Assembly (NCBI RefSeq): GCF_964355755.1
Contig: NC_092675.1
Span: 11,713,812 to 11,777,811, forward strand
Direction: 5' to 3'
Source: Antedon mediterranea
Lineage: Eukaryota; Animalia; Echinodermata
Length of the DNA: 64,000 nucleotides
Shown here piece after piece: positions 1 to 35,495 of the stretch. The position numbers were made by a program, and so were the translations under genes. Under the pieces are notes generated by a model, which was not told the DNA's origin, made no database searches, and saw only the letters and a program-made list of their open reading frames with translations. Positions within the stretch are counted from its first letter, which is position 1. Every line of letters starts with the position of its first letter.

Positions 1-155
1 TGGGTACCCTCATCTCCTTTCCACGCTGCCTTTACAGAGAATCCTAACAGACCTGGGTTCGGAAATATGTATTCCAATGTTTCAGGTCTGTTAGGATTCT
101 TTGTAAAGGATCCATATTGATGACAGCGTGGAAAGGAGATGAGGGTACCCAGGCT
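1..155. mobile_element. Small MITE (left TIR cut by the window edge)
   Basis: tgggtaccctcatctcctttccacgctg (1-28) is the reverse complement of cagcgtggaaaggagatgagggtaccca (~124-151); inner inverted pair agaatcctaacagacctg / caggtctgttaggattct. Confidence 0.75.
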
Positions 156-224
156 TAGGCCTAAGAGGTTAAAACAAAATCGCGAGCGGGAATGACATAC
201 GCCGCCAATAGTTTGACTTTTCAA

Positions 225-415
225 TTCAATTCAAACATTTCATTTAAAACATTTCATTCAAAACATTTCATTCAAAACATTTCATTCAAAACATTTCGTT
301 CAAAACATTTCATTCAAAACATTTTATTCAAAACATTCAATTCAAAACATTTCATTCAAAACATTTCATTCAAAACATTCAATTCAAAGCATTCAATTCA
401 AAACATTTCATTCAT
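225..415. repeat. 14-bp minisatellite (ttcaaaacatttca)n
   Basis: About 13 degenerate tandem copies visible directly. Confidence 0.9.
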
Positions 416-552
416 ATATCGCGCCATTCAATTCCTATCGATGCATTTAATTCACATATCGCGTCATAAAATTCATATCATTGAAATGTTGCGTAAACGG
501 CGTTCCATATGTACCTTTCGGCTTTCCTAAATACTTCTTCTATGCGATCACT

Positions 553-974
553 TCATTTGGATGATGCTGCTTTTTCAAGTTGTTTTATTCGTGCTCGTAG
601 TCTACATATTTTCACTCGATCTGCTGTATTCTTTCTATTCTCCTTTTTTCTCTCCCGTACAACTGACTCATTTGATTTACTAGAACTTTGGATCGATCCT
701 AAAACCAATCCTAATACATTGTATTACAGGTAATAGTAAATACAACATTATCAGCACTTTACTAACTAAAACATTTGTCTTAAATGTAATACAATGCCGA
801 AATGTGTGTAAGGCATACCAATAGACCACTATGGAACATTCAGTATGTGTTCAAACTGAACGATAAGATAAAGGTTATGTAATAAACAACTACCTTCATC
901 AACTCGGTTAGTATTGCTGTGTATTGGTTCTTCATCTCTGATACAGTGGCGATGATCTGTCAAAGCTGCGCCTC
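553..974 (-). CDS. Two possible terminal coding exons (974-894 and 710-553) of an unknown small or TE-derived protein with a basic/coiled-coil tail
   Basis: AG/GT-bounded 81-nt exon after a poly-T tract splices in phase 1 to an exon reading LVLGSIQ...RERKKENRKNTADRVKICRLRARIKQLEKAASSK*. No upstream exon identified. Confidence 0.3.
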
Positions 975-1252
975 CTGAACCAAAAAAAAAAAAGTTTTTT
1001 TAGTAATTGCTATAGAATTTTTTGAGGTTCGCTTTGACAGACCTACATTCCATTGACAATATAAAGTTCGAAAAATAATTTAAATTTGAAATGTATGAAA
1101 TATAATAATAAGATTATTGCAGCATAAGATAAGATAAGATATTGTCGTGATCACAACAAGGCGAACATGAGATTTGTTTTCCTTGATGCTTATATTAGTT
1201 ATTACACACACAATACAGAAAAGTATATAAAAAGTATAACACTTAACAGTAA

Positions 1253-2737
1253 CTAGATTTAATTCGTCACTATGACGAATTATAGGTTATATGCATTGAT
1301 TTAAATAAAGATAATTGATTTTTAAAAGATATATTGATTGATTGATTTTCTCAGAATCTTTAATTATTTATAATATATGATAGGACCTTGCTAACGCGAA
1401 CACCATAGCCGGTATCACAATCCGATCAAAGATCCATATGCGTATAATGTCATAAACCACATTTGTTGTTACATAATAATAAAGACATAAGTAAATTTTT
1501 ATCTAGATTTCATTATAAATCATGTGTATAATCTATACACTAAGAAATAAATTTGAACAAACAATACGGATAATAAAAAAAAAATCTTATTTCGTTTCCC
1601 AAGGTGAGACTCGATCTCGGTACCTTGAATGCCATAGACACGAGCACAGACCACCGAGCCGTACACAACTGACTAAAAGTTGTAGAAAAATTCCTCCGTG
1701 TATTTACTATGCAGTAACCACTTTGATGCAAATAGATTATTACATACTGAAATGAATTATAATTTTTTACTATGATGACATCTTTAAAATGTATACAAAT
1801 GATGCACTGTCAAACTACATACTTTTAACTTTAATATATGAATTTTTGAAGGAAGAAAGTTAATGTTAAGTTTGTTATTTTGGCCTAAGAAAATGTCATA
1901 ATTTGTTTGATTGTCGAAATTATGTTTTTTTAATTTAATATGCAATTAATGATGACTTAATCAACTTTTGTTCTCTTAATTTGATAATAAATCATACATA
2001 TGATACATACACTTCAAGAAAATGAAATAAAAAATAGGTGTTCCCCTGCATTCTGACGATATATATTAATTTTAAAATTTAGCATATTTTCACCATTTTG
2101 TTAACTTATACGTGCGTAGCCAGTCACTTTTGACGTGCTCGTATAACGCAATTTCGAGTTGAAACCTGAATCAAATATGATGATATTATTAAAGAAAGAT
2201 TGTAAAACAGAAATCGGGCAAAAAGAGTGCGCATTAACGTTTAACGCGCAGTGCGCGTGCAAAAATCTGCGCACTCATGGCAATTTTTTAAACGCTTAAA
2301 ATTGCCTGAAACGTACTCTAATTTCATCGAAAATAAATTTTGACAATTTTGAACATTTTAAGCGCGCGTACGCAAGCGTTATATGCGCTACGCACGTAAT
2401 TTAATTGCCATATGATGAAATATGACCTGAAATTTATGAGTACCAAATTTTGTTTAATTGTGATTCATGCTTGTGAAGATATGATTACAAACGTGATTTC
2501 GTAAAATCGCGCGTAGACCGCGTAATTTTTGATTACGCATCGTGAAAATATAACCACATCGATTCCTGGCCATAAGGAATATACTCTGAAAACTTGACTT
2601 AGCTAGATGAAACTGATGCCAAGATAATGCACGGACAAAATAGTGCTAAGGAAAGAATAAATAAATAAATAAATAAATAAATAAAGATTTTGACAGAATC
2701 AAGAGGTTATATGCATATCATGCATATAACCTAATAA
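1253..2737 (-). mobile_element. Non-autonomous Helentron/HINE-like element
   Basis: 5' palindrome aggttatatgca-tatca-tgcatataacct (2704-2732); matching subTIR at 1284-1295; 3' hairpin aattcgtca-cta-tgacgaatt (1261-1281); CTAG end at 1253-1256; (taaa)n tract after the head; body resembles the 49-61 kb array units. Confidence 0.75.
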
Positions 2738-2845
2738 ATATCAATACAATATAAAGACTAAATTAGAAAACGTACATGGTTACAAGAGGGATTTAATCAA
2801 ACTTACTTTTTATCCTGTCACCATTGCTGCTGTGAATTGGATTGA

Positions 2846-4286
2846 CTAGATGGTACGCTCGCTTCGCTCGCGTACCATCTAGGTCGTGCCCACAGATGGT
2901 TCTCGAATACATAATAATTTCAGCGTTAAAAAACTGGCGATTTCAAATGTACGTACCGCAGGACAATAATACATGTCGTTTACAGGAACGAATAAATAGA
3001 CACTGTGATTTATGTACTGAACTAAAATTAGCACCCTGCTGGGAATTACTTCCGAAAGAGAAACTTGTCACAAAATGAGACCAATTGTTTAAGTCAAATT
3101 TAAACAAACTTAATTTGTGTTTGTATGTAACAGGGTTGAGGGATAGGAAAGAGGATGGGTGCAAAGAGGAACACTTTTTAAATATATTCTTTATCCATGT
3201 AGTAACGAAATATTAATTGTTTTCATGTTTTACTAATAATATACCACTAAACACAGTAAAACATTGCGATGTAATACTTTGTTGAAACTATCACCGTCCT
3301 AGTCGATTGAAATAGTACAGTACATGTAACGATACAACGACGTGTATGTTTATATAATGTAAGACAATTTGTGAAAACCACTTCTATTCGTGGCAAATCA
3401 TAAATTCGATTTAATTGTCAATAAATATTAAATTATCTAACTCAACTTAATTAGTAGGCCTAATGGTTTTCAATTGTTTCTTAGAGCCAATTCATACTTA
3501 AGTTGGTTCCTACCCTACCCACCAAAGTTGCGTTTAGGGCATGTGATGCACCGTAGGCCTATCCTCTACTGGCTTTACAACACTACTCATGCCAGTGTAG
3601 TGAGGGAAGGGTGATGATGTCACGTGGGTGGTTTAACTGCAATAATAAAGATTTGTACATAATATACGGCGACTGAAAACGCTAGCTCATTATCCGTTTA
3701 AAAAAATCTATATCCAACCTCTGCAGCACAGATTGAAAAAAAAATGGATCGAATTTCTGTTATGAGTATACAGTACTTGCCTTTACGACACCTGAAGGAA
3801 TAGACACTTGTGGAACAGAGATTGGAATGTTCCATTCATCGCAAATCAATACATTTGTATAAACGTATATTAAATCTATCAAAATAGGTTTTTTTAAAGA
3901 AAATCGGCCTGTCTTCAACATTATGATGCTGTACTCAAGCTGTTCAACCGGTTTTCAGCCATTAAAAACAATTATCGTAGGAGGAGATAGGAAAATGCGA
4001 AGCATCCTCGTATTATTGTCTGCGGGTATTTTTCAAGATGGACATACATTAGACAGTGTATACCACGATCGGAAAACACCCCTATTTGGGGCAAATCGTT
4101 GAACCTAAATTCGTTTTAATCGTCAATAACTAATTATCGAACTCAATTTAATTAGTAAACAGGGTTACATCAGGTGGTTAAAATCAGTACCGAAAGTACG
4201 AACCAACTTTATATACCATCGAGTAAACATTCTAGAAATTACGCGCGATTTACCGAATTTTGCCCTTACGTAAATTTATATATAGA
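2846..4286 (-). mobile_element. Non-autonomous canonical Helitron
   Basis: On the minus strand A|TCTATATA start at 4286; 3' hairpin ctagatggtacgc-gagcgaagcga-gcgtaccatctag ending CTAG|T at 2846; no TSD, AT target. Confidence 0.8.
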
Positions 4287-4660
4287 TGTTTGGTGTGTAC
4301 TGCATGACGGTTGGTGTGTAGGCCTACTGCATGACCATTGGTGTGTACTGCATGATAAATGTGAACTGAAGGCAGAGGAGGCGTTCCATACCACCTAGCA
4401 TAACATTTAATTTCCATCGCGCTGCTGCTGCTGGTGACCACACTACTGCGACTAAATCATACGTTTTCAGTGTCTAGGCCTATTGATCCATCAAAATGGT
4501 GAGTATTGACAAAATATATTTATTGGTAAAGTGTAATTGGATCTAATTTATTATATTAATTATTAGCCTAGCCTAAAAAGACGAATAGGCTAGGCAGAGG
4601 CTATTACTATTAGTAGGCCTACTACTGTACTACTACTACTACTAGCCTAGCCTACTACTA

Positions 4661-5116
4661 GCAAAGATTATATAGCGCCGCTACGCGGCGCAAGATAGGT
4701 AACTGTTGCCAAGCTCCTATCTTATAACACTACGCGCCCAGTAAATCCATAGACGCCATTCGGGCGGACAGGTTATTATTGTGATTTAAATGTAAATGGT
4801 TTAAATTTTGCGGTCCGCCTCGAAGTATCTGTGGTTAACCATCTTTATGATTGATTCATGGAAAAGGGAAGAAATTATCTAAACAAAGTAAAATAAAAGT
4901 TTCTTTGGCATCTGGACACTTTCCGATTAATTCTGTGTGTTTACATTGATATGCTTGGTTAGACAACTTCGTTCTTTAACCGAAACATCGTGGATATTGC
5001 CTTGACAACGACTTTATTCCGGTTCAAACTTGTCCGCCGGAATGGCGTCCATGGATTACAAAGGTCTCACCCAGTTACCTATCTTGCGCCGCGTAGCGGC
5101 GCTATACAATCTTTGC
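4661..5116. mobile_element. MITE with ~45-bp TIRs flanked by TA
   Basis: gcaaagattatatagcgccgctacgcggcgcaagataggtaactg ... cagttacctatcttgcgccgcgtagcggcgctatacaatctttgc; TA on both sides. Confidence 0.85.
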
Positions 5117-5124
5117 TACTAGTA

Positions 5125-5447
5125 CCAAAGATTATATAGCGCCGCTACGCGGCGCAAGATAGGTAACTGTTGCCAAGCTCCTATAACGCGCCCAGTAAAT
5201 CCATGGACGCCATTCGGGCGGACAGGTTATTATTGTGATTTAAATGTAAATGGTTTAAATTTTGCGGTCCGCCTCGAAGTATCTGTGGTTAACCATCCTT
5301 ATGATTGATTCATGGAAAAGGGAAGAAATTATGTAAACAAAGTAAAATAAAAGTTTCTTTGGGATCTGGACACTTTCCGATTAATTCTGTGTGTTTACAT
5401 TTATATGTTTGGTTAGACAACTTCATTCTTTAACCGAAACATCATGG
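5125..5447. mobile_element. Second, right-truncated copy of the 4661-5116 MITE
   Basis: Near-identical to 4661-4993 with one small deletion; right TIR absent. Confidence 0.85.
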
Positions 5448-5929
5448 CTAGGCTCGCGCTAACCGCTCGCCAATTCGCCAATGGCGACTGGAGTCTCCAT
5501 TTGGCGAAAATAATTATTGCCTCGTTCGCCAAATTGGCGAAAACACATTTCCAAGCCTAGGCCTAGCCTGATCGGCGTGACTTCTTATGGGAGCGACAAT
5601 TCGCCACACTTCGGTACTTTCTGACTCGGGTACACGTTTTACCACCACAGCATTTTATGTGACGACGTCACGATCGCCTTATTCATTTTTTTTTAGTTCT
5701 GTTTAAACATGCTCAGAGCGTGCCTCGATGACGTTTTAATGACACACGGTTAATGTGATTGGTTCGTGGCCGGCCGTCGTCGACGTGATGATGAGCGAAT
5801 AAAACTAAAAGGGGAAGTCCCTATTCTTCGACGTAGAAAATGAACTTCGAGAAGAAAATGTAAACAGCAACATGTGGACGAATACTTCCGTAAACGAGGC
5901 TGTTCTGTTATTTAAAAAGGGGAATTTTA

Positions 5930-6462
5930 AATTTAACAAAGTAATTACCTCAATAGTATAATGTTAACATGTTTAATTTTATTTCCCTTTCGATTATTCT
6001 AACCGAAAGTTGCGCTTTAAATTGAATAGCTAAGAAACAGCGTATACTACAAGTACAACGGGAACCCTGGCCAAAGCGCGTTTCGGCCGCCTACATAGAA
6101 TGGGTTACGGCCGCTGCATAGCAAATTCAAAGCTTCTTAAATTTCTGCGGTACATTTCTTCCTAACGTACTTGTTTTATATAATAGATTGATAAATATTC
6201 CACTTATTAAATAATTTAATAAATCGGTAAAATTGACGTTTCGAAGCAAATATTCCATGATGAGAGGCGACATTTTTCGACATGCCTTGTGTGCGGCGAA
6301 GACTAGTTCAGAAAATGGAACAGTCCACTGCGGGGGTTATCCAATCATTAATTAACGCGCTAATACATGCATACCATGCACATTGCCTGGGCGACGGTAA
6401 TTTAGTAATAAGCGGAGAACGGAATCCCCCGTAAGGAAAATGGTAAACACTGATATTTATGG
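5930..6462. repeat. ~530-bp repeat, inverted copy at ~13139-13684
   Basis: e.g. gtaaggaaaatggtaaacactgatatttatggta vs taccataaatatcagtgtttaccattttccttac; colinear over the whole length. Confidence 0.9.
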
Positions 6463-8221
6463 TAGGGATTATTTTCGTAAGTGGTTGGTCTTGTTGGCCT
6501 CTTCGCACGACGACCACTCAAAGACAAATAAAACAATGTAGTTTATCAAACAGAAATATAAATTAGGTTCAATTCAATACTAAATTCCCCAGATTTTGAT
6601 AATGAGAAAGACTCAAAAATGTAATTTTTATCGGAAAAATTGACATTTGAGGCGGATGTACAGTACATAATAATAATAACCGATTTACATATCAAAATAA
6701 AGAGTATTTAAAGCCTGATAACATGCAACAAAAATTACTCCACCACCTATTATGGTCGCCGAGCGATCGTGTTTTGAAAATGGGTTGGTGTTTTCCGAAG
6801 TTATTTTTAGCGCGCGGATTTCGGCTCGCCAGCTTTTGTACCTCCTTTTTAACTCGCGTTTTCTATTAAAATATTTAATAAACATAAATTAAAAATATAT
6901 ATAAATAAAATCTTAAACAAGATCTTTCTATACATATAAATTTTATTCACTATGGCTACATAAGAAATAGTATATTTTTAACTTCAAAGACATGTCACTT
7001 TTTGAAATTTCACGAACGTGTTAAAATCGCCATAACGAAAATCCGCTTCATCGGGATACCTACTATAATCCAGGAGTATTAGACAAAAAAAGGGCCAAAG
7101 GTAGAAATAAATATGCTAAAGCTGAATTTTTCAGGATAGGTCCCCAATGTTGTCTGGAACAACATACTAAAAGTCCCCGGGTTTCCCTGTTGTGCTTCAA
7201 CCTGATTGGGCCATTTTTCAAAATGGCGGCCATCTTAACATTATTTACCATATTTTGACAACCAGTAGGTGTAAGTAAACAATTTTGGTGTCAAAATACT
7301 TAGAAGACCAATATTTACAGTATATTCACTGTAATCACAGCTGTTTCAACCAATGTAAAATAAATAGAAAAAGTCAAGCGCCCTCAATATTGTCAGACGG
7401 CGATATGTGCCTGAGCGTGACGCCGCGCGAGTGGTTGAATCTCGTTCAACTTTCGCGACATTTGCAACTTTTATAACTACACTTTAAATTAATTTAATCA
7501 ATTTCGTCATAAATATTATAAAACCATTTTTATACTATTTGTTAGAAAATAAGATTCTTAATTACCGATTTTTTGGAAATAGTAAGTAATTAAGCATAAC
7601 AACAAGTTTACAAAATTATTTACACCCGGAAGTTTTAAAAATTAACATCGATCGGCCTAGCAAATGTAAACAATGGAAAGTTTGAAAAAATGCTTGTCAA
7701 ATTGTACACTTTTTGTTTTTATTCGTAATTTTCATAAATACTTGGAAAATCTAGGTAAAAGTTTGATTATATATGCTTACATGAGACATTGAATTGTTAG
7801 GAGGTGACGGTGAAAATCTCAAGAAATTTTCATTTAAAAACTCGACTGTTTTGTTAAATGCGAAACAGCGTATTTGGCGAGAGGTCGATGAACGCGGCTG
7901 ATAACCGCTCGCTAGGCTGTACGCAACTAGGCCTAGGTTGTAGCTAGGCCTAGTTGGTACGTATAAGTAGTGTAATCATACTATACATCATTTTAATTTA
8001 CAATAGAATAAATAATAAGCTTAATTATTATCATTGTATTTATTTCAACTGAATATAATTCATCATAAATGTAAAAATTTAGTAAAACTACTAACTACCA
8101 GGCCTAGCTAGGCCCTTAAAATTAAAGCCTAGGCCTATACAAAAATACTCAAACTACTGTATGATAAATATAATATAACATTAAAGGTTGGTAAAATTAA
8201 AATTTCTTTTCTTTTTTGTAG

Positions 8222-8540
8222 GCAACACAGTTTCACGAAAAGGCTTTACGTTCTACTTGCTTCTGTTGTGGAACAAAATTTAAAGAAAAGGATAAAAAAT
8301 ACAACTTAAAAAATATGAAAACCATCACAAATTTGCACTAAATCTAACAAATGTAAAATTACAACCTATATACATTTATACAACCTGCCATTCGCGAATT
8401 TTCAATGGATACTGTATACTACCACGCTAACATTTAAATTAACAGGGCATGGACCAAATTGCTTGGCATGCTACACTTCAACAACAACTATGACCTGGGC
8501 CAAAACTACATTCACAAGTGAAAGAACACACTGGCGTTTA
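8222..8540 (+). pseudogene. Frameshifted N-terminal transposase relic with a RAG1-N-terminus-like Zn motif
   Basis: After a ttttgtag acceptor: ATQFHEKALRSTCFCCG...; then QPIYIYTTCHSRI; then GHGPNCLAC. Order and spacing recall RAG1 HxxxLRxxCxxCG ... HPxxxCxxC ... HxPxCxxC. Confidence 0.6.
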
Positions 8541-8895
8541 AGGGAACAGTTTTTTGTCTGGTACAGCTGCTCCATAATCTGCTTTTCTTCTTTATATCTT
8601 CACTCTTTTTGAAAGTTTATACTAACAAATTTAATTAAATGAACATACCTCATAATCAAATAACTGTTTTCTCATCCTAATTTATATACATAGTTTAAAA
8701 AACGCCAATTTTCAATTAAGATTACATCATACATTGTATATTTCTATTCAACAAAATTGTCAGAACTTTCTATTATTTAAATGTCTAAGATAGTCAGATC
8801 TTGGGTCCATTCTACAGTCACCACAGATTGACTTTTTCATCACAAAATTTCTGAAATTATAAAATGTATTAATGTGTAAATTAAGTATTTTTTAA

Positions 8896-9108
8896 TTCCA
8901 TAAAAATATCATACAAGTATTTTTAGCAGAATACAGGCATATTGCACCAGGTGTAATACAGCCTAAGCTACATATGCTTGAGCACCATGCTATTGCATTC
9001 ATGAGAGAATGGAAGTGGGTCTCTGAGCAAGGCGGGGAGCTAATACATGCCAAACTCAACCGTCACAAAACAGCAGTGTGGATTAGAGTCAAACTTAGAC
9101 TCATCTGA
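8896..9108 (+). pseudogene. C-terminal DDE transposase relic (Chapaev/Transib/RAG1-related H..H..E region)
   Basis: Reads FLAEYRHIAPGVIQPKLHMLEHHAIAFMREWKWVSEQGGELIHAKLNR, matching the PKxHxLxxH ... SEQGxExxH motif. Confidence 0.75.
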
Positions 9109-9369
9109 TTTTCACATCTCCAATGATACAAAATGAAATAATAAAACCCAACAAATGCAAGAAAGCCAACAAAGAATGATTCATTAACATTAATGATCAT
9201 AAAATATTGTACATTTTTAAATGTTAAAGGAATATTGCATTGTATTGATTTCCTTTTAACAATGCCTAATGATAATGAATATGTAAAAGTAATACTATAG
9301 TATGTCTATATTTCAATTACTAACTAATTACTATTGATTGATAGTACTACTGCTGTACTGTACATGTGT

Positions 9370-11722
9370 TAGTGATTGATTGTTAAAGTTACAAATTCAT
9401 AGCATGGTAAACACAATTTAAAATTTACTAGTTCTTGAACAGTAAAATAAACTTACCTATATAGATGGTAGGTATAGGTATTGGTCCAAATCTGTTTAAA
9501 ATGTTTTAGCCATTTTGGGTTGCCGCTATATATGTACCTAAAAAATAGTAATAGTAATAGTATAACATTATAATAAGAATTAATTAAAATTAACTTATTA
9601 AATTTACTATGGTTGCATACATACTAATTTGAATATGCAGTGATGAGCAAAAACAAATGTTAAAATTCATTATTTATAATAATTGTAATTATTACATACA
9701 GGGTAGGCCTATATGCCTTATGTCATTGCATAGGGTATATATAACCAGGTATCCTCATAATAAACATTATTTGTAATAAATACTGTAAATATATTAAAAA
9801 TAAAAATGAATAATAATTAAATAATAATATATAGGCATAGAGCCTCTAGGCCTAATTAGGTAGCCTACTAATACCTAGCCTATTGCTCTAGGCTAGGCTA
9901 AATAAGCTGGAAAGCTACTTCTCTGTAGGCTGCTAGTGCAAGAGAGCACAGGTCTAGCTAGTATATTAAAATAAAAATAGGGCCTATAATATAGGCCTAG
10001 CCTACCCAGCCAGTGGTAGTGATTGGTTGTTAATATTGAAAATTAATAGCATGGTAAACACAATTTAAAATTTACTAGTTCTTGAACAGTAAAATAAACT
10101 TACCTATAATATAGATGGTAGGTATAGGTATAGGTATTGGTCAAAATCTGTTTAAAATGATTTTTCCACTTCGGGTTGCCGCTATGTACCTAAAAAATAG
10201 TAAAACATTACTATAAGAATTAATTAAAATTAGCTTATTAAATTTAATATGGTTGCATACATACTAATTTGAATATGCAGTGATAAGCAAAAACGAATGT
10301 TTAAATTCATTATTTATAATATTGTAATTGTAATTATTACATACAGGGTAGGCATATATGCCTTATGTCATTGCATAGGGTATATATAACCAGGTATTCT
10401 CATAATAAACATTATTTAAATAAAATACTGTAAATATATTAAAACTAAAAATAATAATAATTAAATAATAATATATAGGCGTAGAGCCTAGACCTAATTA
10501 GGTAGTCTACTTATACCTAGCCTATTGCTCTAGGCTAGGCTAAATAAGCTGGAAAGCTGCTTCTCTGTAGGCTGCTAGTGTTAGAGAGCACAGGTCTAGC
10601 TAGTATATTAAAATAAAAATAGGGCCTATAATATAGGCCTAGCCTACCCAGCCAGTGGTAGTGATTGATTGTTAATATTGAAAATTAATAGCATGGTAAA
10701 CACAATTTAAAATTTACTAGTTCTTGAGCAATAAAATAAACTTACCTACTGTATATAGATGGTAGGCTGCTAGGTATTGGTCCAAATCTGTTTAAAATGT
10801 TTTTGCTACTTCGGGTTGCCGCTATGTACCTAAAAAATAGTAAAACATTATTATAAGAATTACTTAAAATTAGCTTATTAAATTTAATATGGTTGCATAC
10901 ATACTAATTTGAATATGCAGTGATGAGCAAAAACGAATGTTAAAATTCATTATTTATAATAATTGTAATTATTACATACAGGGTAGGCATATATGCCTTA
11001 TGTCATTGCATAGGGTATATATAACCAGGTATTCTCATAAGAAACATTATTTAAATAAATACTGTAAATATATTAAACAAAAATTAATAATAATTAAATA
11101 ATATTAGGCCTATATAGGCGTAGAGCCTAGCCTAATTAGGTAGCCTACTTATACCTAGCCTAATTGCTCTAGGCTAGGCTAAATAAGCTGGAAAGCTGCT
11201 TCTCTGTAGGCTGCTGCTAGTGATAGAGAGCACAGGTCTAGCTAGTATATTAAAATAAAAATAGGGCCTATGATATAGGCCTAGCCTACCCAGCCTAGCC
11301 TACCCAGCCAATGAATATGATGCTTGTCATTATTTATATTGTAATTATTACATACATATAGGCCTATAATATTCCCTATTGCATACATGTTACATAGGGT
11401 ATATATAATCCTCATAATATTAAATTTACAGTTTTTGTAATGAATACTGTAAATTTAATAAAACTAAAATTAATTATAATGATTAAATAATATTAAAAAT
11501 ATATAGGCCTAGGCGTAGATCCTGGGCCTAATTTTAATTAGGTAGCCTACTAATACCTATTAGGCTAGTAGGCTAGCCTACTCAAGGCCAGGCTAACTAA
11601 GCCGGAAAGCTGCTTCTCTGTAGTAGGCTGCTAGAGAACACAGGTCTAGCAAGGGCCTAGGCCTAGTATTAAAATAAAAATAGGGCCTATAATATTGGTA
11701 TATGCCTACCCTACCCAGCCAG
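9370..11722. repeat. ~645-bp tandem repeat, 3 full copies plus 1 partial/diverged
   Basis: agcatggtaaacacaatttaaaatttactagttcttga at ~9401, ~10048 and ~10690; aagctgcttctctgtag-like block at ~9912, ~10554, ~11233 and ~11607. Confidence 0.9.
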
Positions 11723-13138
11723 GCCTAAATAATTAAAATAATGTAACATTTCCAAACTCATTTGGGTCAGCTGTCACATGAAAGGCAGTGTTGCAACTAG
11801 AGTAGACATAAGCCTAAGCCTAAAAATGACACAATTTGAAACGGCCATAGCTCAAAAATTCAACCATCACCTCTCGACCATTACTATGTTATAACATTCA
11901 CAGATAACTAAATTATCATGCAGTACCAAAGAATTAGAGTGAAAATTACATTTTTTAAAGATACGGACAAACAAACATGTACCTAATTTGGAAATGTCAC
12001 TCACGTGCGTAAATTGGTCTATGCTTGTAATTTATGGTCTACCCTTCCATTAATTTTCAGCGTTACATTCCTTCTTAAAAACAAAACGACAACGTGCTTG
12101 TTTCATCCAGGGACTCTTTAATGAATATTCATATTTTTAGCGACCCTTTATTTTTTTATCTCATTCTCATTGGCTGTTTAAAACATGTCTTTAAATGACG
12201 TTTGACTCCACTCTGCACACGTGGATTTGTAAGTAATTGTTTATGTATTGTTACTCCAGCGATACGACTTGTAACGTTGAGGGCGCATGACTTAATTCGT
12301 ATGTTTGAAACAGCTGTGTAATGGAGAAGTTTTTTAAAAAATGACCGGAAATGCCTGTTTTGACCTTTGACCATAAATTTGTACATAAGCGAAATTGGTG
12401 TCAAAATACTCAGAAGACCCATATTTATATTCATTATAATGGAAAAGTTTTTAAAAAAATGACCGGAAATGCATGTTTTGAACTTTGACCCTAAATTTGG
12501 ATTATCTCAATATCTCATCAACGACTGGCCGTAGAGACTTCAAAGTTTTCCCAAATTATTCGGAATGCCCAACTTTCTATTTACTTTAATGAAAGAAAAA
12601 TACCAAAAACCTTTAGAAACCTTCTATTTTGACCTTTGAACTATTGACGTAGGCATATTTATTTTTATAGACATCTTGGTGATCGATAGGATACGAAATT
12701 GGTTTCAAAATTTATAACTTTGATCCTAAATTTGGGTTATCTCAACACCGCATCAACTGCTGGCCGTAGAGACTTCAAAATTGTCCTAAATTAAGCAGTG
12801 TGCCCAACTCTCTATTCACTGTAGTTAAAGAAAAATACTAAAAGCCTTTAGAAACCACCTATTTTGCCATTTGAACTATTGATCTGGCCAATACAATATT
12901 TTATATCATAATTAATATATAGAAATCTTGGTGATCGATAGGAATACATAAGCGAATTTGTTGTCAAAATATTCCAAAACACCCATGTTTTTTTACCTTT
13001 GACTTTAATCACTATATTATAATTTAATAATTTAAGTCCCAAATAGCATGATGGACATATCATACCATTCATCATGCCATGAGATGTCAAATTTATCTGA
13101 AACAGCCTAGAAAAAATGTCCGATGGACGAATAATAAT

Positions 13139-13684
13139 ACCATAAATATCAGTGTTTACCATTTTCCTTACGGGGGGGATTCAGTTCTCCGCTTATTACT
13201 AAATTATCGTCGCCCACACAATGTGCATGGTATGCATGTATTAGCGCGTTAATTAATGATTGGATAACCCCTGCAGTGGACTGTTCCATTTTCTGAACTA
13301 GTCTTCGCCGCACACGAGGCATGTCGAAAAATGTCGCCTCTCATGGAATATTTGCTTCGAAACGTCAATTTTACCGATTTATTAAATTATTTAATAAGTG
13401 GAATATTTATAAATCTACTATATAAAGCAAGTACGTTAGGAAGAAATGTACCGAAGAAATTTAAGAAGCTTTGATTTTGCTATGCAGCGGCCGTAAGCCA
13501 TTCTATGTAGGCGGCCGAAACGCGCTTTGGCCTGTGTTGCCGTTGTATGTCTACGCTGTTTCTAGGCCTAAATTTTATTCCGTATATTTCAATTCAAAGT
13601 GCAACTTTCGGTTAGAATAATCGAAAGGGAAATAAAATTAAACATGCTACAATTATACCATTGAGGTAATTACTTTGTTAAATA
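13139..13684. repeat. Inverted copy of 5930-6462
   Basis: Direct reverse-complement match. Confidence 0.9.
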
Positions 13685-14063
13685 AAAAATTTCTTCCCGA
13701 TATTTCTTAGGCAGAATTTAGCGTCAGGCTTTTATTTAGATCTTGCTAGCTAGGGGCCTATCTTAACTTGTAGTAGGCGCGGCCGAGTCTACGTTCGGCC
13801 CGGCGCTCCAAATGGAATCGAACACATAATAAGCACGGGCTTAATTCTTATTTTTGGCGGTTCGAAAATCAATTTAAATAACATATGATTATAAATATAA
13901 CTTTAAATACTAGAATTATTAAAAAAATGTATACTTACGAAAAATAATATTTAATGAAAAGAAACAATACCCACACAGTTTTTTAACGCAATATTTTTTT
14001 TTTTCACATTTTAACATTTTTTAACAATATTTTATGTTGTATTTCAGAATTACCGAGACGGGT

Positions 14064-14625
14064 TGGTGAATTTTGTCCAAGATGGGGAAATTTCTGTCCA
14101 GAATGGGGAAATATTTTGTCCAGAATAAGGACAAAAGCGATAGGTGGCGCTATAATCGTGTCCAAGATGGGGAAGCTGTCCAATATAGAGAAATCCGATT
14201 TGTCCAAAATGGGGAAATTTCTGTCCAAGATGGGGAAGTGGTGGCGCTATATCGTGTCCAAAATGGGGAAATTTCTGTCCAGGATGGGGAAGTGGTGGCG
14301 CTATATCGTGTCCAAAATGGGGAAATTTCTGTCCGGGATGGGGAAGTGGTGGCGCTATATCGTGTCCAAAATGGGGACATTTCTGTCCAGGATGGGCTTA
14401 TGCTGTGTCAAAAATAGGCAGCTGTCCATATAGAGAAATCAGATTTGTCCAAAATGGGGAAATTTCTGTCCAGGATGGGGAAATTTCTGTCCAGAATGGG
14501 GAAGTGCTGTGTCCAAGATGGTGAAGCTGTCCAATATAGAGAAATCCGATTTGTCCAAAATAAAGACATTTCTGTCCAAAATGGGGAAGTGCTGTGTCTA
14601 AAATAGGGAAGCTGTACAATATAGA
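14064..14625. repeat. Left subterminal inverted repeat of the Zisupton, built of ~20-bp/60-bp units
   Basis: Repeated tgtcca(a/g)(a/g)atgggga motif; 60-bp unit present 3 times. Confidence 0.9.
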
Positions 14626-14799
14626 GAAGGCAAAACATTAACACAACATAAGAAACTTTTTTTTGTTTTAAAAACTTTAATTAAGTTCACACTTCTAATC
14701 TGAAAACATTACAAAATGTACACAATAATAACAGTACTATGTTAACACTTTAAAAGTACATTTGAAGTGGAAAAGTGTTCTATTAATTAAATAATTAAC

Positions 14800-16690
14800 A
14801 CCGTTATCAGCTAATTTTAAGTATAATAAACATTTAGTGAGGGATGTGGTTCCAATTTACTTCTAAAGTAAATTTTCACTGAATGTATACATTTATCTGA
14901 CGTTAAAAACTACAGTATATTATATTAAATTCCAACCATAAAAACCACAACAGAAAGTAGTACCGTCACCGCCCTTATTATACCACATCAAGAAAGAGTA
15001 CAGGATATTTATTACTATAATTAATACAGGTTGTCACTTTTTTTTTTATCATCTACCAATTTCTTTTTATTTCCTTCTCTATCTCTACCTTTTTATCTTT
15101 TTTTAAACCTTTTTTTCGACCACAGACCACGAGTATTAATCTATCGTCCCACAGGTAAAATTCAGGCTCAAAATAGGCTCTTATCCCCTTAAAATAATTA
15201 CGGTACTCAGCCTGGAAACAGTTTCAAAGTACAGGTTGGTAAATATGACACCTTTATCAGCTATTTTTAAGTATAATGAACATTTATTGAGTGAAATGGT
15301 TCCAATTTACCTCTAAAGTAAATTTTCACTGATTCTATACATTTTTATCTAACGTTAAAAACTACAGTATATTATATTAAATTCCAACCATAAAAACCAC
15401 AACAGAAAGTAGTACCGGCACCGACATCATTATACCACATCAAGAAAGCGTACATGATATTTATTAATATAATTAATACAGGTTGTCGCTTCTTTTCCTT
15501 CTTTTTATCCTTTTTCTTTTTTTATTTTTTTCTTTATTTTTTAAATATTTTTTTTACCACAGACCGCGGGTATTAACCTTGAGTTATTATAGTAACTCAA
15601 TGGTTTAAAATCAAACGTACACGCTGAATCATTAATTTCCAACTATAAACAAAGTAATATCATTGACAAATCGAGCTATATTTGGCCTAATTTTTCTCAT
15701 TTTACAATAGTATACGAGTGTTTGCATATTAGTAACATTAGTGCTTTAATTGCGTTATTTCCTACTCCAAATAGGCATAGTTTAGGGCTAATGATTATGT
15801 TGATATTAAAATATGATTACAGCCAGTGCTTTGCATTTTCTGTAAGGTTTATCATGCTCAATTAGATTTATTTTTTTGGTTAAATTTCTCTCAAAAACTT
15901 TGTGTCTATACAAATGTTATTAGTGAGCAACTATTCTATCAATGTGTATTCCTTTAAATTTACCAGGGAGTGAATTGTTATGCTGATTTATTATGTCTAC
16001 TTATGTTAATCGTTAAAAACTACTGTATATTATATTAAATTCCAACCATAAAAACCACAAAAGAAAGTAGTACCACATCAAGAAAGAGTAGGCCTACAGG
16101 ATATTTATTAATATAATTAATACAGATTGTCCCTTCTTTTCCTTCTTTTTATCCTTTTTATTTTTTTATTTTTTTCTTTATTTGTTTTTTATTTTTTTTT
16201 TTGTATTTATTTTTTTTTTTACCACAGACCGCGGGTATTAATCTACAGTCACATGCAGTAATTCCACATAGAATTTCGACCACATGATGGAATCCTTGAG
16301 TTATTATAGTAACTCAATGGTTTAAAATCAAACGTACACGCCAACTCATTAATTTCCAGCTATAAACAAAGTGATATCATTGACAAATCGTGTGTCTGCA
16401 TATTAGTAACATAGTATTAATTAGTGCTTTAATTGCGTTATTTCCTACTCCAAATAGGCATAGTTTAGGGCTAATAATTATGTTGATATTAAAATACGAT
16501 TACAGCCAGTGCTTCGCATATTCTGTAAGGTTTATCATGCTCAATTAGATTTATTTTTTTGGTTAAATTTCTCTCAAAAACTTTGTGTCTATACAAATGT
16601 TATTAGTGAGCAACTATTCTGTCAATGTGTATTCCTTTAAATTTACCAGGGAGTGAATTGCTGTGCTGATTTATTATGGCTACTGATGTT
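14800..16690. repeat. Internal duplications downstream of and including the ORF 3' end
   Basis: aaattccaaccataaaaaccacaa block at ~14927, ~15379 and ~16037; ~15578-16000 duplicates ~16295-16684, including the last ~27 codons of the ORF. Confidence 0.85.
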
Positions 16691-19600
16691 CTTCCCATTT
16701 TCATGAAAACTTTCCCATGCTGCCGGTCATCTCTAATTCCATCAAGAAAAATTTTCATATGGATCATTTCATGAGCCATAGTATTAAGCAATTCACTCGT
16801 CGAATCTGCAGCATTTTTACTATTAATATTTATTATTGATGAGGAACCAATTCTATTCTTATGCAATTGAAGTGTTTCTCCGTAAACATTACCTAAAGGT
16901 ACAAGAAACACATGATCCTCGGCCTTGGGTAACTTTCCCAAGTATACAATAGTATTTATGTAGTTGTAGAGCGAATGTATGTCCTTAACCATCTGTTGGT
17001 CTTGCTTGTGGGTCTCTCTTCTTGCTTCGGTTCGTAACCGCTCTTGTTGATCATATATTTTCTTTTTATGAGTACATCTTTCGCACATGGCATTTGTTAT
17101 GCATTCCTTATGATAAGGCTTGTGGCATGTAGAGCAGTTGATGACTTCTGGAGTGATAGGTGTGTTGCAGCAGTTTGTCAGAGGTATTGCGGACATCCTT
17201 GATGCAGGGGCATTGTGGCAGTTATCCTTTTCTAAATATCCACGCAAATCTCCCTTCTCAAATGCTTCAACAAGCTTTCGCCTAACAACCCTCTCGTCTT
17301 CTTCAAATCGTAGTGTTGATGGATCTTTTCCTGCACACAGTGCAGCAGCAAATGCTATACAAAAATGGCCACAAGTGTTACTTGCATAAGGTTGTTGCTG
17401 TACACCATGTACGTGAAAATTCATGTTGGGAACGCCGGGTTCCATCAACTTGCATGCTACCTGAGTCAATTCTAATGGGTAATTTCTTGGATTCAATGTC
17501 TGTAAACTATCGTACACATCGACGTTACTATTGGTAAGTTGTTGGTACCAATGCTTGTCTGATATTGTAATCCAGTGCGAGTTTCTCAGGTTTATAAATT
17601 GTACATATTGTGTAGTCTTGACAAAATTGTGCATTTGCTGTTGATAGATGGTGTCTTGTAATCCACGTGTTTCTGGATAGTTTCTCTTTAGAATTATGTT
17701 GGCGGCATTTATAATCCTATCATCTACCTCATTATGTCTCTCTTCTACAAGCTTTTTATGGTGTAACCTTAGTTGGTATTCCTCCAGCCACCAGTCATTG
17801 GGTTCATCAGTCGTTTGTACTACAACATTTGACTTGGGCGTTGAAATAATCAGTCTTCCAAGACTATCTTTCGTTGTTTTCAGACCGAACGACTTGTTAA
17901 TGTACTTAATATGGTTGCCATTTAATTTATTATTTCGACGGTGTACTAAGGATTTTACCATAAATAAATGATTCGCTATTGACATTTCATTTAAAAAATG
18001 CTTGGACTTATTTAATTCGGAATAAAATTGTTCTGCAACTTGTGTATTTGTTTTAGACTTCAATTGTGGTACAAAATTAATTTTCCGCAAAATTTCAGTT
18101 TCACTGTTTGTGTTAGCCTCATGAAATCGGTCAAAAAGCGCGTACGTGCTGCTTTGTCCAGTTACAGGATGCCCGGTTTCCGACGTCGCACGAAGCCCAT
18201 TAAGCCATGGCATGTCCATTAATAAAGTATTAGCTTTTGCACACCGAATATTCTCCTCTGTAGAATCAGCTACTCTTCCTTCGAACGGAAAGAACATTGG
18301 CTCTGTTTGACCATCATAATGCAAATTGTTACCAAATTTTGCAACAATGTGTGCCATGTCCACAATTATTATATTTGGCTTATGTTTCATCGACATGATT
18401 ATGTCTGTGTAATCTCGAGGCGATTCTGCTCGTAGGACAAACTTAATTCCGTAGACTACTCCATGGGGACAATGTGATGTTAATATTCCCCCGGAACACC
18501 CCCAGATTTTCTTCATTATTTTATTGAAATTATTATGGTTCTTGGCTAAAGCCTCCCTTATACTACAAATAATGTCCAACTTACTTCCCTTTGATGCAAG
18601 ATTGATAGTTTTAGCTATTTTCTTGACTTCCTTAACAGTAGATTGGTGGAGCATCTCAAAAAGTCTCTCCTTACTCATATGTCTGCAGTCAGCAGTCAAG
18701 TTACCGTCTTCTGAAACTTTCCTGAATTCTGTGTTGTAAATTAAATTGTCTTTTCTTGTATGCTCACCGATAAACGGAGACCATTCGTTCAGACCAGCCG
18801 TTATTGGAAAAGGATTTACTGCTGACTGATGCATGAGGCCTCTAGATAGTATATGCAAACTAACTCGTTCATAAAATTCTATGCAATCTACTTTTTCTTT
18901 ACATTTATGAGGCTTGCCAAGTTCAGACAAAGCTGTCCTAAAATGAACCTTTCTGTTCACATCCATGATCATTATTGTGGGATGGTAACCACATATATTG
19001 CAATGCATATCTTCATTGATGTTTGATTGAGCTTCAAATGCTAAATAAGCATTCAACACCAATGTTTGATCAATTTCTATGCCCGATGTTTCGCATATCT
19101 GCTTAACAATGCTACCAGTAGCTATGTGATGATCCACGCCTGACCTAAGCCATAGGCAAACATCAAATCCAATACAAAATGAATCATTATAGTTATAAAT
19201 ACCAAGTTCATAATCCTTGTAATGGTAAGTCATTGAACATTGTGGGCACTTTTTGTGATACACTAATATATCGTGCAAGCCATTCATTGAAAGGAGCCTT
19301 CCAGTTCGATATGCTTTTTGAGGTGGACCTAAATTAACATTGCATTTCTGACATACTTTTTCTGACGGAACGACCTCTTTAGACCACATTCCGGTTTTTG
19401 GAATAAACTCCTTGATCTGCAATGGGATTCGTTTATGGTTGAAAATGTATATAGCTTCGTCTTTAGCCTGATCCGTGACCGTTTTGCTATTATTGTCAGT
19501 TTGTTGTGTTTGTTCGGTTTCATTTGACTTTATGATTGAATCTTGTGATAAACGCCAAAGGCACATGCCTTTATGTACACATGGAACTTTGCGTTTGCAG

Positions 19601-20619
19601 CATTTGCAGTCAATTGCTTTCGTTTTAGCATCATATGTACATACTACCCGTTCAAGCTGTGCATAATAGTGACTTTCGCCCTCAAAGACCGACAGATGCT
19701 GGTAACGTCCATCACTAAAGTAGGCTACAGGTGGTGTGTTATGGTATTTTGCCAAATCATTTAAGGTCTTACATTTTTCAATTGTACTAGATGACAAAGC
19801 TTTAAATGACCCTGAAACAGATAAATTTTCTAGAAAAATCTCGTCTAATGGAGTGAACGAACTATATACCGCCCGTGAAGCTTCTTGTAGATGTTGGCAT
19901 TCAAAAACAGGCAAGCCGCTTGCTCCTGCAACATCCATGATAACACGACAATCTGTTAATTCACAGAAAGAAAACCTTGGATTTGGACCTATATTGGTTT
20001 TCTGGACATGACAGGGGTATGCAACACCACCATGGGAGCTCCTTCTAACAAGGAATATTCCTTTATTTACATCTATACAGATTCCTGTAACTTTGTTGGG
20101 TTTAGGTTTTTTGTTTTTTCCATATTCCATCTCATATTTTCGCTTTGAAGAGGGATCTTTACTATTGCATGTGTTATTGTCTTCCTTCCCTTCTTGTTCA
20201 TCAGTAGCTGTTTCATTTATTTTGGTGTTACTATCTGCATTTTCTTTGATGTTCGTTTGCTTGTTTCCTTTATCAACATTGGTTTCACAGAAATCATGAT
20301 TTTTACTTTCATTACATTCAAATCTATGAGTATCACGTAGGTGTTTCAGCATCCTGTCTCTTCTACACATTATTTTATTACACTCCGGGCAATGATAGTG
20401 ATACCTATCAGTGTCCGTCTGGGGCTCATGTGGAAGTTTGCATGCTATTATCAGGAAAATGCCATAATTAATTCCATGATTTAAATGTTTTGTTTTTATA
20501 TGTCTTTTTAACTTTGATTTAAACTTCCAATTGTTTAGCACACAATAATGGCATGAATGACTATCTGCTATCTCATTAATTATCCTATCTGTATCTATTA
20601 ACTTTATGGAAAATGCCAT
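16603..20619 (-). CDS. Zisupton/KDZ transposase polyprotein (~1338 aa from the first ATG): C2H2 fingers, SWIM, CxC-like, SAP, KDZ core, Ulp1/C48 protease, PHD-like finger, SprT-like metalloprotease
   Basis: Uninterrupted ORF. Motifs: CPECNK...LKHLRDTH; CKCCKRKVPCVH (SWIM); TVKEVKKIAKTINLASKGSKLDII (SAP); GGILTSHCPHGVVYGIKF..AESPRD, IIVDMAH, DRFHE, NTQVAEQ (KDZ/HMGXB3-like); HWITI..VYDSL..QQQ..TCGHF (C48 triad); AHEMIH..HGKVF (SprT-like). ATG in accATGg context at 20619. Confidence 0.92.
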   Translation of the reverse strand: MAFSIKLIDTDRIINEIADSHSCHYCVLNNWKFKSKLKRHIKTKHLNHGINYGIFLIIACKLPHEPQTDTDRYHYHCPECNKIMCRRDRMLKHLRDTHRFECNESKNHDFCETNVDKGNKQTNIKENADSNTKINETATDEQEGKEDNNTCNSKDPSSKRKYEMEYGKNKKPKPNKVTGICIDVNKGIFLVRRSSHGGVAYPCHVQKTNIGPNPRFSFCELTDCRVIMDVAGASGLPVFECQHLQEASRAVYSSFTPLDEIFLENLSVSGSFKALSSSTIEKCKTLNDLAKYHNTPPVAYFSDGRYQHLSVFEGESHYYAQLERVVCTYDAKTKAIDCKCCKRKVPCVHKGMCLWRLSQDSIIKSNETEQTQQTDNNSKTVTDQAKDEAIYIFNHKRIPLQIKEFIPKTGMWSKEVVPSEKVCQKCNVNLGPPQKAYRTGRLLSMNGLHDILVYHKKCPQCSMTYHYKDYELGIYNYNDSFCIGFDVCLWLRSGVDHHIATGSIVKQICETSGIEIDQTLVLNAYLAFEAQSNINEDMHCNICGYHPTIMIMDVNRKVHFRTALSELGKPHKCKEKVDCIEFYERVSLHILSRGLMHQSAVNPFPITAGLNEWSPFIGEHTRKDNLIYNTEFRKVSEDGNLTADCRHMSKERLFEMLHQSTVKEVKKIAKTINLASKGSKLDIICSIREALAKNHNNFNKIMKKIWGCSGGILTSHCPHGVVYGIKFVLRAESPRDYTDIIMSMKHKPNIIIVDMAHIVAKFGNNLHYDGQTEPMFFPFEGRVADSTEENIRCAKANTLLMDMPWLNGLRATSETGHPVTGQSSTYALFDRFHEANTNSETEILRKINFVPQLKSKTNTQVAEQFYSELNKSKHFLNEMSIANHLFMVKSLVHRRNNKLNGNHIKYINKSFGLKTTKDSLGRLIISTPKSNVVVQTTDEPNDWWLEEYQLRLHHKKLVEERHNEVDDRIINAANIILKRNYPETRGLQDTIYQQQMHNFVKTTQYVQFINLRNSHWITISDKHWYQQLTNSNVDVYDSLQTLNPRNYPLELTQVACKLMEPGVPNMNFHVHGVQQQPYASNTCGHFCIAFAAALCAGKDPSTLRFEEDERVVRRKLVEAFEKGDLRGYLEKDNCHNAPASRMSAIPLTNCCNTPITPEVINCSTCHKPYHKECITNAMCERCTHKKKIYDQQERLRTEARRETHKQDQQMVKDIHSLYNYINTIVYLGKLPKAEDHVFLVPLGNVYGETLQLHKNRIGSSSIININSKNAADSTSELLNTMAHEMIHMKIFLDGIRDDRQHGKVFMKMGRTSVAIINQHSNSLPGKFKGIHIDRIVAH

Positions 20620-21989
20620 GGTGTTTATACAATTAAAATTAACAATAGAGTAGAAATCAATAAACAATCAATGATTACAGTAGCCTATTCAATACAAACA
20701 TTACATTACAAAATGTACCGGTACTGACAAGTGTTCCTCTTGCAAAACTTTATCAGTGGCCCTACGAATAACAAATAACCAATCAAAAGCACCTGTTAAT
20801 ACAAAAAAAACAATGAAAATGATGTGACTACTTATTCTAATAAAATTACATAGAATTGTAATAAAATGAAAATATTTTACTAGGATATGGATTTATTTAT
20901 TATTTTATCATCAGGTTACGGTGATTGTTTTTTTATTTCAAAGTAAAATACTCAAATTCACGTTTATAGTTCATTAATTAAATTAATAGATCATAATTTT
21001 TTTTAATGTCACCAACCAAATATACAGTACACTCATCTTGACCAACTTAATTTACGACATGCATTTACATATTATGCAGATCGGAATATTATATCACTCT
21101 TAGATATGATAAATAATTACTGTATGTGATTTTAAACAAACTATTCTTGAAAAGACCTAATAATAAACAGTAAACAACATGTAGTTACCATTAGTACTTC
21201 GAAAATCTTATTTGGTTAATAATAGCTTTGAAAACAAGTAAAAACCAACATAAATAAAACAATCACTATTTGTAGTTGAATGACCGATGACAACAGTGTT
21301 CCGTTCTTTTTGCAAAATTGCATCAAAATCTCTTCAATGAAAAGCAGCCACACCTAATACAAAAAAATGATATAAAGTTTAGAATTTCCCAAATTGTATT
21401 GCAAAAGATAGGACATCAAACTAGTTAAGCACTTACTTTCACTACTTTTAGGCCCTGTCCTCCCATTAAAGAAAAGGGGAATACCCCCCCCCCCCCCACA
21501 CCCTCTATTTCAAAATACTGGAGTAACCACTGGCCTAACTAGGCCCGGTACCTGATGAATAATTAGTTTGCATCTTTCAGTATGCCTAATATGCGGGAGA
21601 AAATTGCAGACTTGCTATGATCAAGCCACGTGCATAGTGGAGTAACGACTAGGCCATTAAGGGCCTAGTAATTAGTGCAGCATTTTTCTTTCATTTGTAT
21701 ACATCATACATGATTATTATTATTGATTAATATGGTTCAACATACCTTGATGTGCAGACTCGATAGTAGGCCTACTGTACCATACGTCTTAAATATTAAT
21801 TGAATGCTTCCATAACTGAGACATTCCCTATATATTGGATAGTCTCTATATGCGGGAAAGATTTTCGACACGATGTAGCGCTAATCTTGACAAAAACTTT
21901 CCTCGTTTTGAACATTTCTGAATTTCTCTACATATTTGACAGTTTCTCTTTTATACAATTCGGAAAAATTGAATTTATTAGGCCTTGGA

Positions 21990-33108: not shown

Positions 33109-33177
33109 ATGATTATGATGGTGATGATTTAAATACTGTTGTTATACAAAGTTTATTTTTCAGTTTAATCGAACAAA

Positions 33178-35441: not shown

Positions 35442-35495
<54 letters not shown>

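Follow-up and report, generated by a model that had tools for sequence, protein, structure and literature searches.

In the RAG recombinase, the dimer of nonamer-binding domains pivots to fit a pair of recombination signal sequences (RSSs) with 12- and 23-bp spacers and enforces the 12/23 rule (PMC10462144). Ends that are asymmetric by about one helical turn have also been described in some Transib families (PMC1131882), in Transib subgroup I and the RAG-like transposon AanRAGL, the latter with 13-bp and 10-bp blocks and 4/13 spacers (PMC9435367), and as a 10-bp end asymmetry in PflRAGL-A (PMC10462144). For ProtoRAG (27/31), an assay showed a preference for the unlike pair (PMC8289069). One-turn asymmetry has been treated as special to Transib (PMC8355894), and its importance in invertebrates has been doubted (PMC7204232). 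Chapaev transposons, whose transposase corresponds to DUF1280 (Pfam PF06918; PMC3985635), are characterized by CAC...GTG terminal inverted repeats, 3-4-bp target site duplications, a DDE catalytic triad and the C(2)C, LH and H(4)H motifs (PMC4079192). An N-terminal Chapa zinc finger is followed by a RING domain in two Chapaev subgroups (PMC4411706), and the duplication of Chapaev3 is the 3-bp TWA (PMC3014272, PMC4079192). Chapaev transposases are unassayed, according to the limitations stated for the Chapa domain in 10.64898/2026.01.24.700457. Here we describe a Chapaev element with bipartite ends offset by one helical turn, found in a 64,000-nucleotide stretch of the Antedon mediterranea genome (contig NC_092675.1, positions 11,713,812 to 11,777,811; hereafter the window, to which all positions refer unless another locus is named).

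Results

Direct reading of the sequence places the element at 7336-12318 (4,983 bp), between two copies of TAAT; the coordinates of its parts are given in Table 1. The outer 14 bases are identical at the left and right ends, and the 17-bp inner blocks are identical at 16/17 positions, a value reached by none of 2,000 random inward-facing pairs taken from the element interior (maximum 15). The spacers between outer and inner blocks, 21 bp at the left and 11 bp at the right, do not align with each other (5 matches with two gaps), and every offset between 0 and 15 other than 10 scores at most 9 matches between the two ends. No further copy of either end block was found within the 64-kb window. 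An initial annotation of this stretch had proposed the shared outer start, the inner block, the 21/11 spacers and the TAAT duplication, all of which are confirmed by direct reading, by empty sites and by contigs from public sequencing runs.

The duplication is 4 bp long, as three uninterrupted paralogous sites in the window carry a single TAAT, and the empty junction is visible in public contigs of runs X8 and X1. We assign the terminal G to the element because multi-copy contigs end exactly at 12318; a 5-bp duplication combined with a lost terminal G is ruled out, these contigs including that G. At full CAC...GTG ends the flanks read GTAAT and TAATG, which differs from the 5-bp duplication of Transib and RAG-like transposons, and the 4-bp TAAT differs from the 3-bp TWA of Chapaev3. 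The outer block matches 5 of the 7 RSS heptamer bases and the inner block is GC-rich, so the ends do not consist of a heptamer and an A-rich nonamer. The hexamer CCTCAA, which ends the inner block (7382-7391 and 12273-12282), also begins the 10-bp inner element of AanRAGL (PMC9435367); it is absent from the relatives of the window element, and its occurrence in both is probably due to chance.

Parts of the element were found in 11 public runs, and the contigs of five of them were compared. At the left end, an X11 contig covers 7336-7455 with no difference at a depth of 1,337, and an X8 contig covers 7342-7530 at a depth of 963, as compared to 22-46 for contigs running into unique flanks. At the right end, X8, X10 and X11 each have contigs of depth 1,257-1,345 whose last base is exactly 12318; we read the difference in depth (about 1,300 vs 22-46) as pointing to tens of copies, contig depth being distinct from copy number. 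Other insertion flanks are also present (a loose end before 7336 in X8, and record 9 of X11). Among the indels listed, X11 has one base inserted at 7355 and one deleted at 7362, both at a depth of 1,153 and, because of these equal depths, taken to lie on one contig; if so, they suggest a variant spacer altered in sequence with its net length unchanged. Across four runs, at a threshold of 1%, the right spacer shows no listed insertion or deletion. This end is also spanned without a gap by a divergent contig (12270-12318, 4 changes) and in X1, a run with a different organism code and study (12100-12320, 2 changes). Both spacer lengths, 21 and 11 bp, are kept among the copies. A 950-bp contig present in X8, X10 and X11 aligns on 12221-12289 with 12 changes and ends just before the right spacer; it is possibly a relative with another end.

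A metagenome scan yielded 76 related loci. With an outer 12-bp profile, which 13 of the 21 inward-facing matches had themselves seeded, 21 inward-facing ends and no wrong-facing end scored at least 15; both ends were recognizable at only two of the 76 loci, L040 and L014. The L040 element (positions 35-6200 of its locus) has 12 identical outer bases, inner blocks matching at 16/17 and an offset of 10 (null 0/2,000), in a layout of a 12-bp block with 4/14 spacers, and is flanked by the 5-bp duplication AGTTG (30-34 and 6201-6205), a length typical of Transib and RAG. In the L014 element (62-5197) the outer match is 9/12, the inner match 14/17 and the offset again 10 (null 3/2,000). Thus in 3/3 elements with a significant inner match the long spacer stands at the 5' end and the offset is exactly 10. 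These three elements are 32-41% identical across 62-88 residues of the last exon, have no blastn match among them, and differ in both their spacers and their inner blocks. The offset is therefore not a private indel, since the copies keep 21/11 and two distant relatives share it; the sister-copy check proposed in the initial annotation was thereby passed, with L040 and L014 retaining the 10-bp offset while spacer and inner block turned over. Selection has very probably held the one-turn offset in at least part of the Chapaev family.

A possible fourth pair, at L073 (offset 11), was dropped, as 133/2,000 random pairs match equally well and there is no duplication; other CAC pairs at the loci lack an inner block and were attributed to chance. 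L040 also has a third inverted repeat, 13-16 bp long, about 420-430 bp inward of both ends (458 and 5770), which L065 shares (223 and 4019).

Registers were then compared among 41 inward-facing candidate ends, with 21 wrong-facing ends as controls. A motif chosen by eye, TTAG[TC], has 19 occurrences in 17/41 candidates (6 at position 24, 8 at 34-35 and 5 elsewhere) and never appears in the 21 controls. Positions 24 and 34-35 lie at the distance of the nonamer in 12- and 23-RSSs (positions 20-28 and 31-39, as a 7+12 and a 7+23 layout imply). A motif-free test was performed on 18 hand-chosen 3' ends, each unpaired or counted singly, leaving out near-duplicates and doubtful hits and using only the 135 between-lineage pairs. 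Of the 47 scoring pairs, 11 fell at offset 0-1 and 13 at 9-11, with rotation means of 4.3 and 5.6 respectively; the observed values were reached by 1/400 and 0/400 rotations. The unpaired 3' ends split into two registers about 10 bp apart, with five lineages in the short register and three in the long one. Ends in the long 3' register are those of L016, L020, L021, L022, L025, L026, L028, L032, L036 and L041. It is possible that the long-3' lineages are reversed in polarity; such a swap could not be demonstrated by a short-5'-end test of L013 and L015, where L013 scored best at 12 bp shorter (4/1,000 shuffles) and L015 gave nothing.

The frame at 8929-9081 matches three proteins (P0001-P0003), all named from crinoids, with 64-73% identity, and a full HMMER scan gave 14 matches with the same two proteins on top. 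Longer homologues of the nearest relative, P0002, come from starfish, corals and hydrozoans; PF06918 is found in 8 of the 11 listed (P0023, P0024 and P0026 being listed without it), and DUF1280 passes the cut-off in 4/4 full-length homologues scanned. The full-length homologues also carry RING and the RAG1 N-terminal family domain. In the family alignment the catalytic residues are invariant (D493 in 22/22, D563 in 20/20 and E912 in 19/19), as are the C(2)C, LH and H(4)H motifs, with GRPR/K only loosely kept. No Pfam match was obtained for P0001-P0003, no match among solved structures for P0002, and only weak coiled-coil matches for the core-weighted profile A1; viral and prokaryote collections contained neither a relative nor a match to the end pattern of the window. 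In a tree, the window element pairs with the crinoid P0002 (support 100/97) and then with the starfish P0020 (99/95); taken alone, these protein matches would make the host probably a crinoid. A 78-row tree leaves out 9 loci that have no last exon, and in a 29-row tree the deep forks are unsettled, so that the ancestral end state is unreadable from it. Judged by its CAC/GTG termini, its 4-bp duplication (TAAT plus empty sites) and its DUF1280 homologues, the element almost certainly belongs to Chapaev, other than Chapaev3, in agreement with the lineage previously proposed for it.

A family profile built on 28 sequences aligns with mouse RAG1 starting at residue 100 (E 3.7e-34); the core stretches of the profile score below zero against RAG1, with no significant sequence match there. 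The structure model of a full-length relative, P0025 (pLDDT 81.7), resembles RAG1 (Foldseek E 4.7e-16; Z 25.0), with Z of 23.4 to BbRAG1L, 23.2 to HzTransib and 10.6 to the P element. Its core (377-958) gives 455 aligned residues on RAG1 at a root-mean-square deviation (rmsd) of 3.5, and residues 313-958 give 512 on RAG1 397-1007 at an rmsd of 8.3. The family is therefore predicted from the model to have a RAG1-type catalytic core fold, and its transposase is predicted to follow the domain order of RAG1, in which the Chapa finger and RING come first, three helices occupy the position of the nonamer-binding domain, and the DDE core comes last. When the pre-core segment was folded alone, the RAG1 nonamer-binding domain ranked 2nd of 48,161 (Z 4.5, 58/68 aligned, rmsd 3.9).

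The window copy itself is an internally deleted, non-autonomous, multi-copy Chapaev DNA transposon. A family N-terminal hidden Markov model (HMM) scores 7.8 bits at 8224 and at most 0.4 bits across the rest of the window, a weak remnant of the first Chapa motif as defined in PMC1131882, with no Pfam match by itself. The RAG1-like N-terminus claimed in the initial annotation thus holds for the family, and this weak remnant is all that the window copy has of it. On 8905-9081 the family HMM scores 54.1 bits (E 1.2e-18), with a weak match to the frameshifted tail at 9099-9167 (E 0.7). The N- and C-terminal remnants stand in the correct order and strand. From the set of DDE triad, C(2)C, LH and H(4)H, only H(4)H and the E motif are retained; the DUF1280 core part and RING are deleted, no open frame of at least 120 amino acids exists in the element, and a Pfam scan of four window remnants gave no match. 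We consider the copy non-autonomous because its transposase gene has lost the middle part and 9366-11722 is taken up by the tandem array of 642-bp units.

Table 1. Features of the Chapaev element and its insertion site (window positions)
Feature	Position	Strand	Basis
Target site duplication TAAT, left copy	7332..7335	.	Direct reading; TAAT occurs only once at paralogous empty sites and in X8 and X1 contigs
Left outer block, 14 bp, CAC terminus	7336..7349	+	Related loci carry this outer motif at their inward-facing ends
Left (long) spacer, 21 bp	7350..7370	+	Length kept in multi-copy contigs
Left inner block, 17 bp, positions 36-52 from tip	7371..7387	+	
Right inner block, 17 bp, positions 26-42 from tip	12277..12293	-	
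Right (short) spacer, 11 bp	12294..12304	-	No indel listed (four runs, 1% threshold)
Right outer block, 14 bp	12305..12318	-	Multi-copy contigs stop precisely at 12318
Target site duplication TAAT, right copy	12319..12322	.	
First Chapa motif remnant (RAG1 N-terminal zinc finger-like), H-x3-L-x3-C-x2-C, ends in stop	8222..8338	+	Family N-terminal HMM, 7.8 bits
Probable decayed second and third Chapa motifs, another frame	8319..8500	+	Read by eye in translation; HMM below 0 bits, weak
Catalytic C-terminus remnant (H-x4-H, EQGGE), 4-residue deletion, frameshifted tail	8905..9167	+	Family HMM
Tandem array of units of about 642 bp: three almost complete (90-93% alike), a fourth partial and diverged	9366..11722	.	
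Host repeat interrupted by the element	7099..7335, resuming 12319-12990	.	Uninterrupted inverted paralog at 24802-25605

The host repeat around the element is dispersed, with three uninterrupted paralogs in the window. An inverted pair of about 550 bp (90%), at 5923-6464 and 13138-13691, flanks the host repeat together with the Chapaev copy, which may be nested inside a larger element bracketed by this pair. Elsewhere in the window, an 8.9-kb element (14064-22925) has repeat-rich inverted ends of about 560-650 bp (83%) and holds an intact 1,354-amino-acid frame on the minus strand (16603-20667) with weak matches to CxC5 (KDZ transposase) and SprT-like domains. A 9.8-kb element (29002-38790) has 481-bp inverted repeats (98.5%), a THAP frame (29559) and a Mutator-like transposase frame (30549). 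The region 48803-63790 is an array of units of about 1.5-1.8 kb with 66-82% identity, one of them inverted and one present as a near-exact duplicate spaced 1,601 bp apart (identical frames at 56800 and 58401).

Discussion

We propose, at a probability of roughly 0.6, that this multi-copy Chapaev with one-turn-offset ends is moved in trans by a RAG1-like transposase that binds a long/short pair. The catalytic core of such an enzyme, acting in trans on the ends of the window element, would read the outer CAC block, and the three-helix segment would dimerise and read both inner blocks. This segment would reach the inner blocks on one helical face only and would tilt toward the short end, so that spacers would fall into two registers a turn apart and a long/short pair would be favoured; the preference would be like the 12/23 rule, with no second subunit seen. 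We infer this RAG-like geometry because the RAG nonamer-binding dimer pivots and because the inner motif of the relatives lies at nonamer distance. It seems likely to us that a segment resembling the nonamer-binding domain reads the inner block, and the chances that a long/short pair is preferred over like pairs appear about even. More tentatively, and with less confidence, Chapaev transposases might be single-chain, full-length RAG1 look-alikes that enforce one-turn pairing without RAG2, whole lineages having exchanged the long and the short end but retained the pair. No RAG2 was seen with the family, and no search aimed at RAG2 was made.

The offset might alternatively reflect helical phasing without a pairing rule, where each end works alone provided that its inner block keeps to the same helical face, both registers are usable at both ends, and the long 5' and short 3' spacers of the three whole elements are inherited and not enforced. 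The 3' ends do occur in both registers across lineages, with no short 5' partner demonstrated for the long-3' ones; a 9-bp spacer deletion in the 3' end of L033 (at 1491), relative to its sisters L026 and L025, moves that end about one turn, close to the short register; and invertebrate RAG-like enzymes have been argued to rely mainly on the terminal 15-17 bp (PMC7204232). We nevertheless regard phasing as the less likely reading, since all three whole elements have unlike ends of the same polarity despite full turnover of spacer and inner block, and no symmetric whole element appears among the 76 loci, although only two had both ends. It is improbable that the asymmetry arose independently, as a Chapaev adaptation that marks left versus right, is read by another domain and is unrelated to RSS asymmetry. 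Many transposons have unlike ends, the inner blocks have no sequence in common with the A-rich nonamer, and both the loosely kept GRPR/K and the lack of sequence matches in the core and in the putative nonamer-binding segment would fit such an origin; however, the protein is colinear with RAG1 in N-terminal sequence and predicted structure, the inner motif stands at nonamer distance, and Transib and RAG-like relatives share the offset. A functionless 10-bp indel, private or inherited from a family founder, is largely refuted and very improbable: indels of similar size do occur at such ends (as in L033), and copies of one young family share the quirks of their founder, but aligning the two spacers does not reveal a simple deletion, the offset recurs in L040 and L014, and two registers are found across lineages.

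Several observations weigh against the proposed long/short pairing. With n = 3 whole elements, a coin toss would make all of them unlike-ended with P 0.125, and shared descent could also explain the three; L014 has no clean duplication, and no ends were found in L001, L002 and L018, which make up 3/5 of the loci with an N-terminus and both flanks. The eye-picked TTAG[TC] is missing from 24/41 candidates, including both window ends; the inner block of the window element fits the ends of its relatives by position only and not by alignment; and L030 and L034 are off register, in addition to the shifted end of L033. The long-3' lineages, for which no 5' partner was recovered, could be long/long. 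On the protein side, the Z of 4.5 for the lone pre-core segment ties with unrelated chains and lies under the usual chance best of 7-8, and the same segment has a Foldseek E of 3.1 and no sequence match to the nonamer-binding domain. As for the copies, X8, X10 and X11 are one sample, possibly the source of the window itself, which supplies most of the copy evidence, and contigs carrying another spacer would align only partly to the window element.

The element and its relatives share with described Chapaev transposons the CAC...GTG termini, the 4-bp duplication, the C(2)C/LH/H(4)H motifs and, in the relatives, the combination of Chapa, RING and DDE core. We found no description of bipartite, one-turn-offset ends for those transposons; further differences are the 5-bp duplication of L040, which is outside the stated 3-4 bp, and the window copy having lost most of its transposase and holding the 642-bp array. 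Asymmetric Transib elements likewise have a CAC tip, bipartite long and short ends about one turn apart, a single transposase and the core fold predicted here, whereas their duplications are 5 bp, their ends are built of a heptamer and an A-rich nonamer, they have neither Chapa nor RING, and the short end is at 5' in the 2005 examples (PMC1131882). RAG-like transposons resemble the family in their extended outer block, inner block and RAG1-like N-terminus, with an offset of 9-10 bp in PflRAGL-A and AanRAGL; the 4/13 spacers of AanRAGL come close to the L040 layout. Unlike the Chapaev family, they encode RAG2L, make 5-bp duplications and have a RAG1L core closer to RAG1, and the pair preference of ProtoRAG was shown by assay, that of the Chapaev ends being proposed here.

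Compared with the 12/23 RSSs and RAG1-RAG2, the CAC tip, the one-turn difference in the position of the inner signal and the predicted colinear protein are shared, while the outer block here is 12-14 bp, the inner block is not A-rich and the offset is 10 rather than 11. The RSS parallel drawn in the initial annotation is accordingly valid for the 10-bp difference, which is comparable, and fails for the spacers themselves: 11/21 are not counterparts of 12/23, because the outer block is 14 bp and not 7, and the inner block is no A-rich nonamer. Its description of a 4-bp-duplication lineage fits the TAAT of the window but is not strict, given the 5 bp of L040. The relevance it saw for RSS asymmetry was overstated, one-turn asymmetry being already published for Transib and RAG-like transposons; what stands is the extension of the trait to another branch.

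A literature search found no report of one-turn-offset Chapaev ends; Repbase Reports, beyond the reach of this search, may describe them. No mention of such ends occurs in passages of PMC3014272, 10.64898/2026.08.26.747230, 10.64898/2026.01.24.700457 and 10.1101/100735, nor in one supplement of PMC4079192. The superfamily is known, and this end architecture, kept across divergent members, is apparently undescribed for Chapaev.

The origin of the 12/23 rule and the need for RAG2 are debated (PMC8355894 vs PMC10462144). If true, a one-turn offset in Chapaev, a more distant branch that shares the RAG1 N-terminus, would move this trait to the common ancestor. The family also offers a test system, with one protein that has the predicted domain order of RAG1, three divergent families that supply natural ends of both kinds, long and short, and relatives whose duplications differ (4 vs 5 bp). 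Should the single-chain pairing reading hold, the 12/23 geometry would be as old as the last ancestor shared by Chapaev, Transib and RAG1, and a minimal enzyme for testing pairing could be had from intact Chapaev genes that lack introns.

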